From a virus (taxonomy: Duplodnaviria; Heunggongvirae; Uroviricota; Caudoviricetes), in the IMG/VR virus record IMGVR_UViG_2724679074_000004, positions 1-33,787 of that record: a DNA stretch of 33,787 nt; one strand, given 5' to 3'. The translations under genes were made by a program, and so were the position numbers. Of the stretch, positions 2,827 through 33,580 are shown in pieces. Positions within the stretch are counted from its first letter, which is position 1, and the number at the start of each line of letters is the position of its first letter. Under the pieces are notes generated by a model, which saw only the letters and a program-made list of their open reading frames with translations, made no database searches and was not told the DNA's origin.

Positions 2827-4798
2827 CCCCCTGAGTCAGGGCGTTAATGGCCTTTTGTGCCTGCTGCATGGCTTTCTCAAACGCTGTTGATCCGCGTGGG
2901 GTGTTTGCCATTCGGAGCATTGCATTTCTGAATGCCTCGCTCTCATAGGCGCGAGTAAGAAGTCCGTAGCTTACTGCTGCGCCAGTTGTTGCAGGGTTCA
3001 TTGCCGTCCCATACCCAATAATGAACGGGATGGTTTGCTGACCTGTGGGCGTTGTTACTGCCGCTTTTGCAGCCTGCTGCGTGGATTGAAGGTAGTTTTT
3101 CAATCCTTTCAGATAAGCAGCATCCTGCCCCTTAAATGTTATTCCAGTCTGGTTTTGCAGGATGTTAAGCTGTCGAAGAAACTGGTCAGGGGAACCACCT
3201 GATTTCTCCATCGCCTTTCCAATGATGCCATTGCGCATTTGCGCCCTACCAACACGACCAACTGAGTTATACAGAGTCTTAATTTCAGATTTGTTCTTGC
3301 TGAATAGCATGTTGTTGACAACTTCCGGCGTCAGGTCGCCTTTCATGAGAACATTCTTCAGCCTGGTATTCTTTAGTTTCGCCGCTTCGTCAGCGTAGAC
3401 GGCATTGGCCTGCTGATATTTACGGAGAGTATCGTTGCCAAGATTCTGACCAATGGCACCATTGATATCGTCGGTCATTGCCTTGTAAACGCGCTGAATG
3501 GCAGCATCGGAACGGTTTGGTAACACTGGTCGCTCACCCTTCACATCCATTCTGAACTGGCTGCGCAGATCGCTTAATTGCTTCAAATCCAGATTTACCG
3601 GACCATCAGGACCAGCATTGCGAACAAGCTCATCACGATAGGACTGAAGTTTTGAAATAGTCTCGTTATCAGCAACCTTACCGAGCTTCTGAAGGTTAGA
3701 TATTTCTGTATCAATCTGCTGAACTGCTCGTGCAGGCTGAATGTTTACTCCTGCCATAGCATTCTGAACCTGCTCCAGTCGATTACCGGCAGCACGACGA
3801 ATTCCTGATGTTTTCGCTTTAAGGCTGTCAATAACAACCGCTGGGTCATACTCACCGAATTTATCGGCAAATCTCTGCACCAACTGGCTTCTCGCTTCCT
3901 GTTGCGTTGCTCTCATTCCGCTTGTTCCAGCCAGAGGGATATTTTCTGCTGTAGTCTGCGCCATTTTTCCGACGCGGGAAGTAGGCTGTAACAGGTCTGT
4001 GGTGTGCAGAGGAACGCCTTCACGCTCTGCAAACCTGATAGCCTGCTGCGCTTCAGGCGCAATAGCACCACGAACGCCACGATAAGCAGCACCTAATCCA
4101 CGTCCGGCAGCGTTAATAGCACCGCCAGCCAGCACACCAACGCCTAAATCGGTGGCGAGTGCTTCCGCATCATCTTTCGCACTATTTGCAGCAAGTGATC
4201 CAACTGCGTTTTCAGCGAGAAGGCGAGTTGCCCCCTGAGCAATTCGACCAGCAAGTGTTGGTGCCTGTGCTGCCGCTCTCTCAACGCCAGCAGGAGTGAG
4301 GTAAGGCAATGCTTCAGCAAATATCCTTCCCTCTGTCGTTTGTGGAGTCAGCGCGCCTTGCTGAAGGCCAAAGTCCTGCTCTAATCCCTGCGTTGTTACT
4401 CGTGGAGCTGGTTGATATGTACCATCGCCAATACCGAGTTTACCGCCAGCCCATGCCGCCGCGCTTGTTACAGCATCGGCAACTGATGCAGGTATGTTTG
4501 CCACATTCACGCCAGCCTGCACCAGTCCGCGACCAGTCTCTTTTACTGCTTCGCCAAGATCAGACATAAATCCACTTTGCTGTGGTTGTTGCTGTGCTAC
4601 TGGCTGTTGTGTCTCCACTGGCTGCACAGATGGCAATGGATAGGCAGCATAGAAAGCTTGCTTAGCCTGCTCTGCATTTTCTCCGGCTTGCGGGGCCACG
4701 ACTTCATTGAAGTATTGCTCCTGAGCCTGCGCTTTTTGTTCTGGTGCTAACGCCTGATACTGTGGAGAGGCGATAACATCTTTCCATGCTTTAGCCAT
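2801..4798 (-). CDS. Ejection (DNA-injection) protein, P22 gp16-like
   Basis: 665 aa ORF in the gp7-gp20-gp16 position and order; Gly/Ala/Gln-rich; size close to P22 gp16 (609 aa). Confidence 0.75.
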   Translation of the reverse strand: MAKAWKDVIASPQYQALAPEQKAQAQEQYFNEVVAPQAGENAEQAKQAFYAAYPLPSVQPVETQQPVAQQQPQQSGFMSDLGEAVKETGRGLVQAGVNVANIPASVADAVTSAAAWAGGKLGIGDGTYQPAPRVTTQGLEQDFGLQQGALTPQTTEGRIFAEALPYLTPAGVERAAAQAPTLAGRIAQGATRLLAENAVGSLAANSAKDDAEALATDLGVGVLAGGAINAAGRGLGAAYRGVRGAIAPEAQQAIRFAEREGVPLHTTDLLQPTSRVGKMAQTTAENIPLAGTSGMRATQQEARSQLVQRFADKFGEYDPAVVIDSLKAKTSGIRRAAGNRLEQVQNAMAGVNIQPARAVQQIDTEISNLQKLGKVADNETISKLQSYRDELVRNAGPDGPVNLDLKQLSDLRSQFRMDVKGERPVLPNRSDAAIQRVYKAMTDDINGAIGQNLGNDTLRKYQQANAVYADEAAKLKNTRLKNVLMKGDLTPEVVNNMLFSKNKSEIKTLYNSVGRVGRAQMRNGIIGKAMEKSGGSPDQFLRQLNILQNQTGITFKGQDAAYLKGLKNYLQSTQQAAKAAVTTPTGQQTIPFIIGYGTAMNPATTGAAVSYGLLTRAYESEAFRNAMLRMANTPRGSTAFEKAMQQAQKAINALTQGAKSDALSE

Positions 4799-6153
4799 TA
4801 ATCACCCCATAGTGAAGAAAAGTTACTGCCGGCTGCTGGCTGTGATACCTGTGTAGGTTGAGATTGCTGCCGCTGAGATTTACCAACATTAACGTTATAT
4901 TGTTGGTTGTAATTGTCGGTATATTGCTGAATGTCGCGCATTGATTGTTGCAGTGCTTCAGGGCTTGAGAAATCAACCTGTGGCATACCTTGAAAATACA
5001 TCTTTGCTTCTGCAACGGTGTTGATACCGGATGCCCCCATGTCTCTGGCTGCTGCAATGCCCTGATTCTGCATCTTTCCTTGGATTCGCTGTGCAGCGTT
5101 GTATAGTTTCCTCTGATCACCACCAGATGCACGGCTACGAATATCTGCACCAAGAGCAGGAGAACCTGAAGAGCCTGTAATGCCAGTCATGAAGCCAAGA
5201 TCGTCAATTGATGCACCAGAAATTGCATCAAGATCTTTCTTCATTGCGTAATTCTGCGCACTTGCTGCCGATGTAGCCGGAGCGGCAATAGAGCCAGCAG
5301 GAACGCGAACCATATTCCCCTCGTTGTCGATACCTTCGTAGAACGCATTAGCCCCAGCGCCGTGAAGCTTCCCGCCTACCGTTACAGTTCTGCCATCTGC
5401 TAACTGAACTGTACGCTCATTATTCCCAACCGACCCTTTCATTGATGCTCTCTGCATCGATAAATCCTGACCGCGCATCGTGATATTCTGACCACGTGCT
5501 GTTAGCGCCTCTCCAGCCTTATTGCTGCGGATTGTCTCTGCCAGCCTGCCTCGGTCAATCTCACGACCAGCCATCTTGTCCTGAACATTGAAGTAGTCAA
5601 TCGGGCCAAGAGCAGCCATCCCAAGGTGATCAACAAACTCACCAAATCCTGAAGGGTTCTGCCGATACATCTGAGCAACGCTGTTAGGGTCAACACCGAC
5701 GCGAGTAAGTTCCTTGGCGTTGTTTTGCAGCCATGATTGCATTGCTTCTGGAGAAGATGACGCAAGACGTGCGCCAGCCGCTAATGTACCGATAGAATTA
5801 CGCTGGTCTTCATCAATGAATCCCATGCCTTTACGAACGGATTCAATCTGGTCTGGATATTGAGTAGCTAACTGACGCAAAGCACCGCGATCACCAGACG
5901 CATAAGCATTAGCGTATGCCTGCTGAAATTCTTTCTTCCGCTGAGCCTGCTTTTCCTGCTGAAAAACACCCGCAATACCTGAAAGGCCTTGCAAAGCAGT
6001 CAGCCCAACATTGTTAGCGCCTGAACGCTCAATATCATTGTTCTGCCTGATAAGCTGAAGCGTATTGCCGATGTCATTTACGCTCGGAGCGTTTGAGTTG
6101 ACGCCGCCGATACCAGCCAACAATCCGCCGTTTGTTCCTTGCCAAGTAGCCAT
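4798..6153 (-). CDS. Ejection protein, P22 gp20-like
   Basis: 451 aa ORF (P22 gp20 is ~471 aa) between gp7- and gp16-like genes; start overlaps upstream stop. Confidence 0.75.
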
Positions 6154-8266: not shown

Positions 8267-9684
8267 TACTCAATCCTTATCTGGCAGCCAGACAGAGTTA
8301 CAGGTGACTTCGTGATAACGCGCAATTTGAAGCCAACATTTTTCCTGATGCGCCCGACTCGCTTCCACAAAACGCGCTTGTCGTAAACGAACGGTTCATT
8401 CTGCTCAATCATCTGCTCACGCCCGTAATTTATGCCGTCAGTGGTTGCAGAGAGGAACAGTCGGTCGGCGTACTGCGCAACGCCAGTTGACGATTCAACC
8501 TCAAGGTCGAAAACTCTGGCGTTATCTGCTTTGAACAACGGAGTAAACAGCAGGTGTTCCTGCTGCTTGTCGTACTGGCTGCTGATATCGAACTGCAATT
8601 TGCCGGTAACCGATTCCAGCTTATCGCCGCACGTTATCTGATTGCCTTCGTAAATGAAGTCGATAGCGCGGTACACATCGTCATACAGACCTGTTTTCAG
8701 CACACACCATTGCGGACCATTGGCGCTTGAAGATGCGTCGTACACGAGAACATGGCGCGGAAGGTGGATAATCAGCAACTCATGAGCATCAAATCGCAGC
8801 GATTCCATCACACCATCAGCCAGTTCATCAGTAGTGTAGGAGCGGAGGATTTTCTCAATGCTCGCGCTGGCGATTGGTGACACCTGACCGGAGCCGATGA
8901 TGTATACAGACGGCGCACCTGTTGCCGGATTGCTGATGAACGCATACGAATCAGCAAACGGCGTTTTGCAGTAAGTCCCGGCGATGCCTTTTTGCACCAT
9001 CAGTGATGGCTGTGCGACATACAAAGCAGCACCAACGGTGGTTGCACCAGTCAGGGAAAAATACTCAATCGTCGATGAACCAAAGCAGACGATGAAGTCT
9101 CGCCATGTCCCGATACCGATGATGCCGTCCGGCTGAGACTCGGCACGATATTGTGCGCTGTAACGGTCAGGATGCGATTCGTCTTCAAGGTCAGTGATAA
9201 ACCATGAATCAGTGCCGTCTTTTGACCACGCATAACGCCCACGTAAACGCGTAATGTCGCGGACTGAACCTAACTCATACTGAGTGAATCCGCTGTCTGT
9301 AGGCCAGTTTGAGACGGTTTTAACCGTGCCATCATAGCGATACTCTACCAGTTGACCATTAACGCCTACAGCCTGAGATGTCCTACCGTGCGCCATTGAT
9401 ACGCGACCACTTCCGGCAACATCACCGACTTCACTTTCTCCTTTGTAGAGCTTGCCACCACACACGCGATAAACAGCATTCTGCGCCATGTTGTACTCGA
9501 CGCCGCGAGATACGCCGTTCACATCAGAACGTTTGGCAATGCCCGGGAATGAGCGAAGATATCCGCTGCTGTTCAGGATTTCTTTGGGTGTAGCCAGCAT
9601 ATTCACTGGCAGATAGTCGATATAGTCGGCGTTTCGAAAGTCTTTTCCGACACCTTTCATAAGCGGAAGTTGCTGAATCGGCAT
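8266..9684 (-). CDS. Tail hub protein, P22 gp10-like
   Basis: 472 aa, identical in length to P22 gp10; position between gp4 and gp26 homologs. Confidence 0.8.
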
Positions 9685-10184
9685 TATTCGCTCCCGTTAT
9701 CGCAAGGTTCCTTCCGGTGGAAGTAATTCCAACCGTTCCACTTCGCCAACTGATTACCACTACCAACAGGCATACGGTTTGGATAACCTGACTTACATTT
9801 AGCGGCTTTTGCCCTGTCCATTGCAGACAGTTTGACGAGTCGCTCTTTCCCGTATCTGGCAGTGGTTATAAGTTTTGCAGACGCTTCCAGCGCATAATCC
9901 GGAGCAATGCAGCAGGCAAGGTTGAAAATGACAGCATTTATAGCGTTATTTGATAAGCCGTGCTCATCGCCAGGATCCGGAGCAACATCTGCATCAGCAA
10001 AAATGTAGCCAACGTTGATCCCAGGTGACGCATCACCGCCAAGCCATTCAGCCATCATCATTTCAAGGTCGTTGACGCCGTCTTCCATAGACTGCGGTTC
10101 GACATCGGTTAACGTGGCATTTGATGCCACACCGAGCTTACGTAATGCCGCAAGAACTAAATCACCCTTCGTTGTCAGGTTCAT
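9684..10184 (-). CDS. Tail accessory / portal-closure protein, P22 gp4-like (start chosen at internal Met giving 166 aa)
   Basis: Sequence [43 protein letters not shown] matches remembered P22 gp4; ORF track extends to 10259 but 166 aa equals the P22 gp4 length. Confidence 0.8.
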
Positions 10185-10398
10185 CTGCTGCCGCCTTAGG
10201 TTTTCGACCAGGCTTTTTACGCTGTTTTTCTTCTGGATCTGGCTCTGGATCTGCGACATCCTTCAAAAGGTCATCAGGATGTGAAAACCAACCAGCATCC
10301 AGATATTCCTGAAGCTCTTCGGCTTTCACGATTTCAAAGTCGTATCCAACGCCTTTCCATTTCTTCATGTCGCCATGACGAAAGATCATGTGTGTCAT
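10162..10398 (-). CDS. Small conserved hypothetical protein between coat and gp4 genes
   Basis: ORF with GGAG 6 nt upstream of ATG ([24 protein letters not shown]..); acidic C-terminus with lysine-rich tail; overlaps gp4 start. Confidence 0.5.
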
Positions 10399-10410
10399 GC
10401 TTGTCTCCAG

Positions 10411-10436
10411 ATAAAAAAGGGAGCCGAAGCTCCCTC
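10411..10436 (-). terminator. Intrinsic terminator/attenuator just downstream of the coat gene
   Basis: On the minus strand: GGGAGC-TTCG-GCTCCC hairpin followed by TTTTTTAT, located between coat stop (10443) and next start. Confidence 0.5.
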
Positions 10437-10442
10437 TGGTTA

Positions 10443-11738
10443 TCACGCGGTCTGGTTAGGCAGACCAACACCAATTGCCTCTGGTCGTACAGCACATGCT
10501 GAATACCACACAGCAATACGGCACTTACCAGACAGAGTGTTGATATCACCCTGCGTTGCGAAGATGCCGTTAACACCAATACCAGGAATGCTGAAGGAAG
10601 ACGTTTTCATACCAGCAAACAGTTCATGGGTTACCGGGATCGGCTGAGACAGTAGGCGGATTGAGTCATCAGCCCAGAACACGTTAGCGGTGGTTGTTGC
10701 CACGTTCAGAACGTTTACCGGAGTGGTATCAGCAAGAGAGGTGTTTACGTTAGCGTAAGCCTTCTCTTCTTTTGTCAGTGACGCATCATCCAGTGCAATC
10801 GGTTTCGGCGTGATTTCGATGTGAGTACCATCGATCACACGGGTGATTGAGAAAGTCGCATCATCAGTCAGCACGTTCTTCGCCATCTGAGACAGGAATT
10901 TCACACCAGTGAAGCTGATTTTGTCGCCGCGCTTAAATCCGGTGGTGGAGGATACGGTCACCGTTGCAACACGGTTGTCGACGTTCTCTTTGTTACCATC
11001 GGTATCAAGGGTGTATGCCTGCGGCTTAAACTTCTGCGCACCAGAAACAGTTACACCAGTAGCGGCTGACTTGGTAACTGCCGGAAGTTTCGGTGAGCGA
11101 AGAATTTCATCAAAGCCAGCAATCTGACGCTGAATAGTACCGTTGCGATACGCTTCTTCAGGAACGCGACCGAAGATGTCACCATCTACCAGGTTGCGGC
11201 CTGCTTTGCGGTAATCGTCAGGGTTCAGGAAGTAACTGATGCCCATATCGCGGTTTAGCTCACGGGAGAACATCAGGCGCTCTGCATCAGACACAAAATC
11301 CCAGCCAGACAGGCCAGTAGATGGACCAATTGCGCGGGTATCGTGAACAACAAGCGAGCCCATTTCAGTTGCCTGTTTGGCAATTGCTGACTCAATGTTA
11401 TTCGCCAGTTTTTTGGCGGATGCCTGGATGCGGCGACGGTAAGAACGCTCATCACGCAGGTCATCTGCACGAAGCTCGAAGAAATCGTTATCCGGATCGC
11501 CCATGTTGCATTTCACGGAGAGTTCCAGAATCCCGGTTGCGTTGCCAGTTAAATCCCAGCCAGTCTGGGTTGGCGCTTCCTGCTCAACAGGCATCCACAC
11601 GGTGTTGCTTGAACGCTGCATGGATTCTGCCGGAGGGGTGTATTTTGTCACTTTGGACGCCATTGGCGTCAGGTTCTGGACGGTTTCGATGATTTCATCC
11701 AGAGCATACGTGACCAGTTGACCTTCATTTAATGCCAT
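10443..11738 (-). CDS. Major capsid (coat) protein, P22 gp5-like
   Basis: 431 aa; near-colinear match to remembered P22 coat protein ([18 protein letters not shown].., ..[13 protein letters not shown]). Confidence 0.95.
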
Positions 11739-19246: not shown

Positions 19247-19378
19247 GCTCTACCCCTTCATTGAGGGGATTTGCTCTATTTAATTAGGAATAAGGTCGAT
19301 TACTGATAGAACAAATCCAGGCTACTGTGTTTAGTAATCAGATTTGTTCGTGACCGATATGCACGGGCAAAACGGCAT

Positions 19379-19398
19379 GAGGTTGTTAGCGCAACCTC
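19379..19398 (-). terminator. Candidate tR'-like hairpin in the late leader, upstream of the holin
   Basis: Minus strand GAGGTTG-CGCTAA-CAACCTC (7-bp stem) followed by ATGCCGTTTTGCC; placement analogous to lambda tR'. Confidence 0.3.
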
Positions 19399-19490
19399 CT
19401 GCCACCCGCTTTCACGAAGATCATGTGTAGAAGGCCGCAGCGTAACTATCACTGATGAATTCAGGATAGCCAGTGGCTACGGCTCAGTTT

Positions 19491-19518
19491 GGGTTGTGGC
19501 GGCCGGAATCGAACCGGC
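19491..19518 (-). other. tRNA-like T-arm plus acceptor 3' strand motif (not a complete canonical tRNA as far as I can fold by eye)
   Basis: Minus strand GCCGG-TTCGATT-CCGGC (perfect T-stem/loop consensus) followed by CGCCACA A CCC; a complementary TGTGGTG lies ~120 nt upstream (too far for a standard cloverleaf). Confidence 0.3.
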
Positions 19519-19757
19519 TTCCATCGGTGCGCTGCCGATTGCAGTACGCGCGGCGGTCAGCTACATGACTAGTATTTTCACTGTCGCCTATCTGCTAGCT
19601 CGCCATTGAGCTTCACCACAACGATAAGAGCACTGCGCGGCACCTTTCACCAATTCCGCGAGGTCTGCGGGTTCAATGCTCTTACCTGTTGTGCAAACAA
19701 AAAAAGCCACCATTGCAACTTAAGAGTCACTAACGGCAGCTTATCTTCTAATTATGG

Positions 19758-20279
19758 CTAAATGGATAATTGCATGTCAAGGCTTTTAACAGCAACATGC
19801 TTAACTTTCTCAACACGTTTACGCATTTTGAAAGCATTTTGCATTGGCTGGTACAAAACAAATAACGACGCTTTCAGGATGTCGTCAATTTCGTTTCTAC
19901 AGGTTGCCAGTGAAGGTTTTCTCCATCCCTCGCCACCACGTCCACACATCTTGCGTGGCTTTGCAGTCGCGTGATAGTAGGATGCAATTGCTCGCTTAGA
20001 TGAACCATGAGCGTAGTAGCTGAGGAGGATGCCAAAGGCTTTCTTGTCAATGTACATGACGGAATCGACGACCTGAGAAATCAACATTCCATCATCATCA
20101 TTGCACATTGGCCTTGTCATAACTCTTCCCGGCTCTACGCTCTCCATGAACTTCGCTATTACGCTGCTCATGCGCTTTTCCAGACGACCTGAATAAACCC
20201 ATGCGCCCCACAGTTCAAGCCAGCAATTCAGCCAATCGTGCTGTTCTTTGGTGAGGTTTAGTTCTCTTATGCTCATCAT
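19758..20279 (-). CDS. Late-gene antiterminator Q (phage 82 / Phage_antitermQ-type, gene 23 position)
   Basis: 173 aa ORF directly downstream of the nin genes and upstream of the late leader/lysis genes; resemblance to 82-type Q proteins is from memory. Confidence 0.55.
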   Translation of the reverse strand: MMSIRELNLTKEQHDWLNCWLELWGAWVYSGRLEKRMSSVIAKFMESVEPGRVMTRPMCNDDDGMLISQVVDSVMYIDKKAFGILLSYYAHGSSKRAIASYYHATAKPRKMCGRGGEGWRKPSLATCRNEIDDILKASLFVLYQPMQNAFKMRKRVEKVKHVAVKSLDMQLSI

Positions 20280-22608: not shown

Positions 22609-22685
22609 GACTTCCCTCTCCCCCAAATAAAAAGACCTGCGATTACCAGCAGGCCTGTTATTAGCTCAGTGATGTAGATGGTCAT
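22605..22685 (-). CDS. Possible 26-aa hydrophobic peptide gene bridging ren and ninB
   Basis: ATG overlaps ren stop (ATGA) and its TGA overlaps ninB ATG (ATGA): [26 protein letters not shown]; too short for the ORF track. Confidence 0.3.
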   Translation of the reverse strand: MTIYITELITGLLVIAGLFIWGRGKS

Positions 22686-24742: not shown

Positions 24743-25033
24743 TCAGAATTCCATCTGGATTTGTTCAGAACGCTCGGTTGCCGCCGGGCGTTTTTTATTG
24801 GTGAGAATCGAAGCAACTTGTCGTGCCAATCGAGCCATATCGTCGTCGACGACGCCCCATTCAAGAACAGCAAGCAGCATTGAGAACTTTGGAATCCAAT
24901 CCCTCTTCCACCTGCTGATCTGCGACTTATCAACTCCCACAGCTTCCGCTGTCTTCTCAGTTCCAAGCATTGCGATTTTGTTAAGCAACGCACTCTCGAT
25001 TCGTAGAGCCTCGTTGCGTTTGTTTGCACGAAC
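24743..25033 (-). CDS. cII: CII transcriptional activator (lambda-type)
   Basis: MVRANKRNEALRIESALLNKIAMLGTEKTAEAVGVDKSQISRWKRDWIPKFSMLLAVLEWGVVDDDMARLARQVA.ILTNKKRPAATERSEQIQMEF is essentially lambda CII; ORF track extends upstream over nutR, but true start is MVRANK. Confidence 0.9.
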   Translation of the reverse strand, partial: VRANKRNEALRIESALLNKIAMLGTEKTAEAVGVDKSQISRWKRDWIPKFSMLLAVLEWGVVDDDMARLARQVASILTNKKRPAATERSEQIQMEF

Positions 25034-26526: not shown

Positions 26527-26532
26527 AAACAC

Positions 26533-26560
26533 CCGGCCTCAGCGCCGGGTTTTCTTTTCC
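26533..26560 (+). terminator. Intrinsic terminator ending the cI-orf98 transcription unit
   Basis: CCCGGC-CTCAGC-GCCGGG hairpin followed by TTTTCTTTT. Confidence 0.6.
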
Positions 26561-27648: not shown

Positions 27649-28272
27649 ATGTCATCAATCCGCTTAACTACGAGAATGAAAGAGGAAATCGCTCGTAACG
27701 CTTTAATTAAGTCTGGGGTTTTCACTGAACTTGAAGAAGTAACAAAGTTAAAGAACCAGCTTGCACTTGACGCCAGAGTTATTGCGTTTGGCGGTAAAAA
27801 GAAAACTGAGGAAGTGGATCGGTTATCATCCAAGTTAGCAGCTATAAGTGAAGAACTTGAGAAGATGGGATGTTCATTTTACTCATGCGATGTTCGTTCT
27901 ACTTCGATTTATCTGACTGTATCTGGAAGAAGGGTTGGCTGGCATTCATATGGGAAAGACGGCAACGGCGAAGATATATTGCTCCCTACTCCGACAAAAG
28001 ATAAATGCATGTTTGACGCAGAGCACGAAATAACAAAAAGGTTTGATGAAATCTGCTCATTACAACAAAAACTTGAAGCAAAGAAAAAGGATATCGAATC
28101 AAATGTATGGGCTGCTTTAAACTCAGTCACAACAGTTAAGCGACTTATTGAGGTTTGGCCTGAAAGCAAAGAGTTGCTACCAAAAGAAGCAGATAAAGCA
28201 AGTACAGCACTTCCTGCTTTACGGGTAGAAGATTTGAATAAGATGATTGGACTTCCTTCCGAGGCCGCATAG
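27649..28272 (+). CDS. Hypothetical protein (207 aa), unknown function, early-left accessory region
   Basis: Start at MSSIRLTTRMKEEIARN with GAGGAA RBS; soluble, coiled-coil-rich; no family recognized. Confidence 0.55.
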   Translation: MSSIRLTTRMKEEIARNALIKSGVFTELEEVTKLKNQLALDARVIAFGGKKKTEEVDRLSSKLAAISEELEKMGCSFYSCDVRSTSIYLTVSGRRVGWHSYGKDGNGEDILLPTPTKDKCMFDAEHEITKRFDEICSLQQKLEAKKKDIESNVWAALNSVTTVKRLIEVWPESKELLPKEADKASTALPALRVEDLNKMIGLPSEAA

Positions 28273-28309
28273 TCGGCCTTTATTTTTGGCATAAACAACA
28301 GAGGCTAAC

Positions 28310-33554: not shown

Positions 33555-33580
33555 AAGCCGCCTGATGGCGGTTTATTTTT
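33555..33580 (+). terminator. Intrinsic terminator upstream of the xis-like gene
   Basis: AAGCCGCC-TGAT-GGCGGTTT hairpin followed by ATTTTT. Confidence 0.5.

Follow-up and report, generated by a model that had tools for sequence, protein, structure and literature searches.

The gap behind the coat gene

Judged from its sequence, the window (the whole stretch of DNA analysed, 33,787 nt) is a P22-like (Lederbergvirus) phage or prophage of E. coli with the late operon on the minus strand, and the DNA around the site considered here has been found to be 95–98% identical to that of the E. coli Lederbergvirus phages APC_JM3.2, IME10, Louie, Dewey and HZ41. Along the minus strand the late region follows the order Q, late promoter, lysis, terminase, portal, scaffold, coat, small ORF, gp4, gp10, needle, gp14, ejection proteins and tailspike, and a hairpin is located between coat and the small ORF. 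This hairpin fills the only sizeable intergenic gap of the structural block, the 44 nt from the coat stop to the next ATG; the other late head and tail genes abut or overlap. Read from 10445 to 10396 on the minus strand, the region is TGA TAA CC AGAGGGAGC TTCG GCTCCCTTT TTTATCT GGAG ACAAGC ATG, and the following features have been assigned to it and to its neighbours:

10443–11738, minus strand: coat (major capsid) gene, homologue of P22 gp5, 431 aa (Pfam PF11651 P22_CoatProtein, E = 1e-165)
10429–10437, minus strand: 5' arm of the hairpin, AGAGGGAGC, with the G-C-rich core GGGAGC at 10434–10429 (sequence, scan, folds)
10425–10428, minus strand: UUCG tetraloop closed by C-G, of the extra-stable cUUCGg type (sequence, fold)
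10416–10424, minus strand: 3' arm of the hairpin, GCUCCCUUU, with the core GCUCCC at 10424–10419; its last three U's are shared with the U-tract
10411–10418, minus strand: U-tract UUUUUUAU (U6AU), directly 3' of the G-C stem (sequence)
10405–10408, minus strand: Shine-Dalgarno sequence GGAG of the small ORF, 6 nt before its ATG at 10398–10396; GGAG or GAGG and an ATG stand at the equivalent site in relatives
10162–10398, minus strand: small ORF of 78 aa, P22 orf69-like family (ORF list; N-terminal motif common to P22 orf69 and to homologues that follow the hairpin elsewhere)
9684–10184, minus strand: gp4 homologue (tail accessory factor or head-tail adaptor), 166 aa (PF11650 P22_Tail-4, E = 2e-57)

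The first-pass annotation had described a stable hairpin with a T-run at 10411–10436, immediately behind the coat gene and within the late operon. The structure has been confirmed by the sequence, the terminator scan and the folds, which fit these coordinates almost exactly, and the placement is borne out by the ORF list, the Pfam matches and the sequence, which put it on the coding (minus) strand. The gene next downstream is not a tail gene, as had been supposed, since the small orf69-like ORF comes first and is followed by gp4, gp10 and gp26, the head-completion or tail-accessory genes. The gp4 homologue is the first recognisable low-copy gene 3' of the hairpin; the block further contains a gp10-type stabilisation protein of 472 aa (PF11134, E = 7e-301) and an Sf6-type tail needle of 317 aa (PF16532, E = 3e-107).

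As RNA the element reads AGAGGGAGC-UUCG-GCUCCCUUU (10437–10416, minus strand) and starts 5 nt past the coat stop codon. The terminator scan of the minus strand gives a stem of nine pairs, five of them G-C, around the 4-nt loop; six pairs (GGGAGC/GCUCCC, 10434–10429 with 10424–10419) form the core, and in the remaining three, outer A-U or G-U pairs, the first three U's of the tract take part; the tract itself ends 2 nt before the Shine-Dalgarno sequence of the small ORF. Folding energies of −10.8 kcal/mol for the 16-nt core, −14.4 kcal/mol (z = −3.5) for the 25-nt hairpin and −20.9 kcal/mol (z = −2.9) for its 76-nt context have been obtained. Both hallmarks of an intrinsic terminator are thus present, namely a G-C-rich stem-loop on the transcribed strand and, directly 3' of the stem, a U-tract. 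On the plus strand CUCUGGUUAUC comes after the hairpin and there is no U-tract; the element is unidirectional, and the bidirectional terminator that phage L annotates on both strands has been rejected for this site. Rfam covariance models run over the whole window at gathering thresholds have matched no family, and a family match is not to be expected for generic terminators.

Several observations concern the adjoining reading frames. The coat gene ends with TGA (10445–10443) and a subsequent in-frame TAA (10442–10440), and P22 and phage L have a single TAA. The 78-aa ORF, for which the Pfam search has returned no match, overlaps the start of gp4 by 23 nt at its end. Its orf69-like family is marked by an N-terminal M..M[VIL][FY][RK].G...K.WG pattern, a DGW..HP motif, a C-terminal Glu-Pro repeat of variable length and a basic, KKPGRKPKA-like tail; some near-identical relatives (L019 type) carry a long orf186-like form in its place, with homology interrupted between about 10404 and about 10254 of the window. 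An ORF of 94 aa that would start at the GTG at 10446 and run through the hairpin has been rejected, having no Shine-Dalgarno sequence, and its homologues start at the Met that corresponds to ATG 10398, with GGAG upstream; from the sequence it is almost certainly an artefact. Read-through calls of the same kind in the records of phage Louie (L002, 3530–3667) and phage Brookers (L005, 1998–2252) probably have wrong starts as well.

Chance expectation and conservation among P22-like phages

The loose built-in criteria for terminator-like structures have proved non-discriminating, with 18 sites in the window against 18.7 expected. The fold-based permissive scan is likewise too noisy to serve as evidence, so that only the strict scan discriminates, in which at least four G-C pairs and at least six T's within 8 nt past the last G-C pair are demanded; it is blind to bulged stems such as the tR'-like hairpin discussed below. 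Six distinct sites on both strands of the window fulfil the strict definition, whereas dinucleotide shuffles yield a mean of 0.76 matches per shuffle and 0.09 at ΔG ≤ −12; terminator-like sites as good as the post-coat hairpin therefore occur about 0.09 times per shuffled window, and the share of 130-nt stretches expected to hold one of such quality is well below 1%. Within the structural-gene block of about 17 kb, the post-coat site is the only compact perfect-stem site that the strict scan finds on the coding strand. On the same strand, the fold-based scan has offered only two other clean intergenic candidates with hairpin and U-run, a promoter-proximal one at 19742–19704 and one at 2629–2597. 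The other strict sites are:

22633–22656, minus strand: terminator-like site
24767–24794, plus strand: terminator-like site
26531–26550, both strands: terminator-like site
28261–28280, plus strand: terminator-like site
33555–33574, plus strand: terminator-like site

These five are all located in the early or regulatory half of the genome and together lie far above the shuffle expectation; the site at 26531–26550, with U-rich tails on both strands, may be a bidirectional terminator. A second terminator-like hairpin of the late unit, at 2597–2629 on the minus strand, has the arms GCUCUGCAUC...GAUGCAGAGC followed by UUUGUUU (−16.6 kcal/mol) and is situated past the last ejection-protein gene, which ends at 2801, and ahead of the tailspike start at 2318, in a region where a plus-strand ORF (2419–2826) is found too.

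The homologous site has been annotated in several P22-like phages. In P22 (BK000583) it carries a stem_loop at 6102–6119, noted there as located like the stem-loops of HK97 and lambda, in Sf6 it is labelled "t coat" as a likely transcription terminator, in HK620 "tGP5", the termination sequence after the major capsid transcript, and in phage L, g341c, Emek and MG40 a "terminator" feature; the records of the closest database phages, APC_JM3.2, IME10 and Louie, leave the element unannotated. In the window the coat (PF11651), gp4 (PF11650) and gp10 (PF11134) genes stand in P22 order with the hairpin between the coat stop and the small ORF, and P22, Sf6 and HK620 share with it the layout, the orientation, the homologous flanking genes and the anatomy of short G-C stem, tetraloop and U-tract. 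The stem GGGAGC/GCUCCC exceeds the GGGGC/GCCCC stem of P22, phage L and Sf6 by one A-U pair, and the GGGAGC form is shared by the Proteus and Providencia relatives.

A G-C hairpin with a U-tract has been found after the coat stop in 13 of 13 GTDB prophages (from Escherichia, Shigella, Citrobacter, Buttiauxella, Kluyvera, Tatumella, Pantoea and Providencia; 66–99% coat identity), in all 80 viral contigs compared with them and in Proteus phage Brookers, at a distance of 3–23 nt from the stop and with differing downstream genes. Further viral contigs have added hairpins with T-tracts in 12 of 14 of the Vibrio type, 80 of 80 of the CUS-3 type and 79 of 79 of the Sf6 type (171/173), along with more stem variants; the two Vibrio-type exceptions are identical marine contigs in which the hairpin is kept and only UU follows. 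Apart from the U-tract of these two, hairpin and U-tract are present in every relative examined, a set that spans phages of enterobacteria, Vibrio, Pseudomonas, Sodalis and Hamiltonella. The sequence of the stem changes widely within this set:

Sf101 and CUS-3: GGGGC-UUCG-GCCCC
Sodalis phiSG1: GGGGC-GUAA-GCCCC
APSE-1: GGGCGC-UUUA-GUGCCC
Kosakonia Kc166B: GGGGCC-GUCU-GGCCCC
Pseudomonas AH02: GGGGCC-GAAA-GGCCCC
Vibrio 1.003.O: GGGCGGC-UUCG-GUCGCCC
Klebsiella IME279: GGGGGCC-UUUGU-GGCCCC

At the near end of the range, an exact match to the window over the hairpin and the first 10 nt past the stem is seen in 53 of the database loci examined. A UUCG loop is used by 17 of 25 representative relatives, and when 24 representatives have been aligned on the loop, 90.5% of the cells are paired and five of the seven pairs have changed on both sides. 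None of 500 shuffles reaches the observed pair counts and slid registers pair far less, with the restriction that these counts are biased and partly circular, the hairpins having been located by their pairing ability before alignment. The positional evidence is stronger, because such sites are rare by chance and yet stand after the coat gene almost always. The tract is equally well kept, the 8 nt past the core stem consisting of 79% T, 10% A, 7% C and 3% G in 34 distinct relatives, and in Kc166B and IME279, where the next start codon lies 40–50 nt further on, it stays attached to the hairpin. Near-universal conservation of position with changing stem sequence argues for a function, and we regard it as very probable that the element belongs to the conserved class of post-coat hairpins of intrinsic-terminator type in P22-like phages. 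Neither this kind of element nor, in practice, this instance of it is new: it was first noticed about 20 years ago and bears annotations in P22, Sf6, HK620, phage L, HK97 and lambda, and it carries little weight as a discovery. It does mark the true 3' end of the coat cistron, and exposes ORF calls that run through it, such as the 94-aa GTG ORF and its counterparts in the Louie and Brookers records, as artefacts.

Possible roles of the hairpin in a presumably Q-dependent operon

Any role has to be considered in the context of late antitermination, for which the following features have been found at the head of the operon:

19758–20279, minus strand: Q-type late antiterminator gene, 173 aa (Pfam PF06530 Phage_antitermQ, E = 1e-25)
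19751–19780, minus strand: candidate late promoter (PR'-like), TTGACA-18-CATAAT, 11/12 matches, the best sigma-70 match in the window
19699–19742, minus strand: tR'-like candidate for a promoter-proximal terminator, with a U run behind a hairpin of 39 nt (−18.4 kcal/mol, z = −2.7)

The layout corresponds to the lambdoid arrangement of Q, PR' and tR' upstream of lysis and structural genes, and the elements would be expected to work as they do there. Some P22-like phages have tRNA genes between late promoter and lysis genes, and at about 19500–19580 (minus strand) of this interval a T-arm-like sequence, GGTTCGATTCCGGCC, has been noticed; ARAGORN finds no tRNA at about 19500–19580, a permissive Rfam search of 19250–19800 gives only a weak match to a tmRNA 3' end (E = 0.055), and the region may be a decayed tRNA gene. 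Q is a processive antiterminator, and Q-modified polymerase is in general highly resistant to intrinsic terminators. Given the Q gene, the strong promoter and the promoter-proximal terminator, the polymerase that arrives at the coat hairpin should consequently be largely termination-resistant. Downstream of the hairpin, the promoter scan has shown nothing better than chance (18 promoter-like sites against 23 expected), and the late operon of P22 has one promoter (PMC8022706). The essential downstream genes hence need read-through, and the element can be at most leaky.

On this basis, the reading that we think somewhat probable is that of a leaky intrinsic terminator which at the same time protects 3' ends and thereby enriches the scaffold and coat message over that of the low-copy downstream genes. 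Late transcription would start from the promoter that directly follows the Q gene, and the promoter-proximal terminator would be passed only by polymerase that Q has modified to termination resistance, which would go on to transcribe the genes for lysis, terminase, portal, scaffold and coat. A minority of polymerases, imperfectly modified or started without Q, would stop at the cUUCGg hairpin and its U-tract, and the remainder would read into the small ORF, gp4, gp10, needle, ejection-protein and tailspike genes. The 3' ends arising at the site, whether from termination or from a cut within the U-rich single strand, would be capped by the stable hairpin, which would block 3' exonucleases, so that the scaffold and coat message would be both more abundant and longer-lived than the low-copy message downstream. 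Partial termination, stabilisation of the upstream RNA by the hairpin and the size of either effect are what we infer here; the structure, its strand and position, the conservation with changing stems, the conserved U-tract and the context of Q, promoter and terminator are observed.

A P22 virion holds hundreds of copies of coat and scaffold and about 3–20 copies of each downstream product, and in view of this contrast a step in polarity after coat is sensible. Transcript polarity cannot be the main determinant of stoichiometry, since terminase and portal, which are low-copy too, are encoded upstream of the hairpin, and as Q-modified polymerase is resistant, termination of the main late transcript could even be negligible, in which case RNA decay, or transcripts that are not antiterminated, might be all that the element affects. 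Ribosome-controlled attenuation by means of a fixed distance from stop codon to hairpin has been rejected, as this distance varies from 3 to 34 nt among relatives.

The alternative closest to the preferred reading is a pure stability or processing element, in which Q read-through is complete, an RNase E-type cut falls in the U-rich strand, and the cUUCGg hairpin protects the scaffold-coat segment as the downstream part decays faster. The hairpin is very stable for its size, bears an extra-stable tetraloop and sits at a segment boundary, Q antitermination is in place, a poor U-tract accompanies the retained hairpin of the two marine relatives, and in HK97 the hairpin past the major tail gene lacks one altogether, all of which would agree with such an element. 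A U-tract is needed for intrinsic termination and not for the block of 3' exonucleases, however, and a bare exonuclease barrier would have no need of the tract that nearly all relatives have retained. That tract and hairpin remain together even when the next gene follows 40–50 nt on leads us to favour a terminator over a bare stability hairpin, and its persistence in Kc166B and IME279 indicates that it is not due to the ribosome-binding site downstream, with which it does not travel. We therefore hold the pure stability element to be rather unlikely and favour, from the sequence, a terminator-competent element that would also protect any 3' end formed there. The same U-tract bears on the proposal of a translation element for the small ORF, in which the U-rich leader acts as an S1-binding enhancer and the hairpin insulates the start from ribosomes terminating on coat. 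In the window the tract leads straight to the GGAG and ATG of this ORF, and in the minimum-energy fold of the 76-nt context the Shine-Dalgarno sequence has its first G's weakly paired; yet in Kc166B and IME279 the next start is 40–50 nt away from hairpin and U-tract, the tract is almost pure U and not A/U, and the downstream gene varies among relatives, which makes the proposal very improbable.

A safety terminator would leave Q-modified transcription unaffected and only stop Q-less transcripts that arise, for instance in a lysogen, at spurious or internal promoters within the head genes, so as to silence the downstream genes. This is one of the two possibilities put forward for phage L (PMC8022706), and the P22-like prophage BTP1 has four transcription start sites on the coding strand inside its capsid gene cluster (PMC7067206). 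It offers no explanation, though, for a site that is always right after coat and not at other gene ends; lambda and HK97 have similar hairpins specifically after abundant structural genes, and the promoter scan upstream within the head genes of the window has given no above-chance signal. We judge it improbable. At the level of DNA, the palindrome could be a linker, i.e. a recombination junction of mosaic modules, or be devoid of function and due to chance. Near-identical relatives do swap the orf69-like for the orf186-like gene, with the break in homology just past the hairpin and the Shine-Dalgarno sequence at about 10404, and the same GGGGC-TTCG-GCCCC follows coat genes of both the P22 and the CUS-3 type. 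Distant relatives, on the other hand, retain pairing and U-tract and change the stem, which speaks for selection on RNA structure and not on DNA sequence, and the shuffles together with the positional conservation exclude a chance palindrome, so that little credence is left for this explanation.

A bolder proposal attributes to the element not minor tuning but an indispensable part in the RNA architecture of the late operon, either as a site that even Q-modified polymerase cannot ignore or as a processing site that yields a discrete, long-lived scaffold-coat mRNA or a small RNA derived from the 3' end. It is prompted by the near-universal retention from enterobacteria to Vibrio and Pseudomonas and by the analogues in lambda and HK97, and we give it a slim chance. 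If it were true, the long-standing question of intra-operon terminators in antiterminated phage operons would become directly testable. In any case the locus is a clean, conserved site for testing intrinsic terminators inside Q-antiterminated operons, a role described as "not known" (PMC8022706).

Comparison with phage L, lambda, HK97 and T7

The only explicit published discussion that we have found concerns the homologue of phage L, where the role of the intra-operon terminator has been called "not known" and either partial termination or the stopping of spurious, non-antiterminated transcripts has been suggested (PMC8022706). The transcriptome paper on BTP1 does not discuss the post-coat site (PMC7067206), and a full-text search of the literature has found no direct measurement by RNA-seq, Term-seq or termination assay for this site in P22-like phages or in lambda. 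The roles named in the first-pass annotation, an attenuator that raises coat over downstream transcripts or an RNA stability element, are the same as those offered by the annotators of the relatives and match the published conjecture; they are reasonable and, through the conservation of the sequence element, partly supported.

Outside the P22-like phages, lambda carries AUGGCCC-UUCG-GGGCCAU followed by UUGUUUCU between E and FI, and for HK97 putative terminators have been annotated after the major head gene gp5 and after the major tail gene. In the HK97 record (L111) the putative terminators lie at 1693–1714 after the major head gene, at 3193–3220 before the major tail gene and at 3944–3963 after it, the last being a G-C hairpin without U-tract. 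In both phages a G-C hairpin, whose stable tetraloop is UUCG for lambda and GAAA for HK97, is followed by a U-rich stretch and the Shine-Dalgarno sequence of the next gene, and as in the window their hairpins reside in a Q-dependent late operon directly after the most abundant structural gene. They differ in that the capsid genes are unrelated in sequence, the virions are those of siphoviruses and the U-tracts are poorer (UUGUUUCU in lambda, UUUU in HK97); the likeness is accordingly one of analogy, homology not being demonstrated. The three HK97 sites suggest a general pattern in which hairpins bracket the most abundant structural genes.

A counterpart that has been characterised experimentally is T-phi of T7, a leaky terminator directly after the major capsid gene 10. 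Like the element proposed here, it is a partly efficient terminator past the major capsid gene, and it lowers the transcription of the downstream structural genes; unlike it, T-phi acts on T7 RNA polymerase and not on Q-modified host polymerase. The use of inefficient terminators to balance expression has been described for T7 (PMC9163698).
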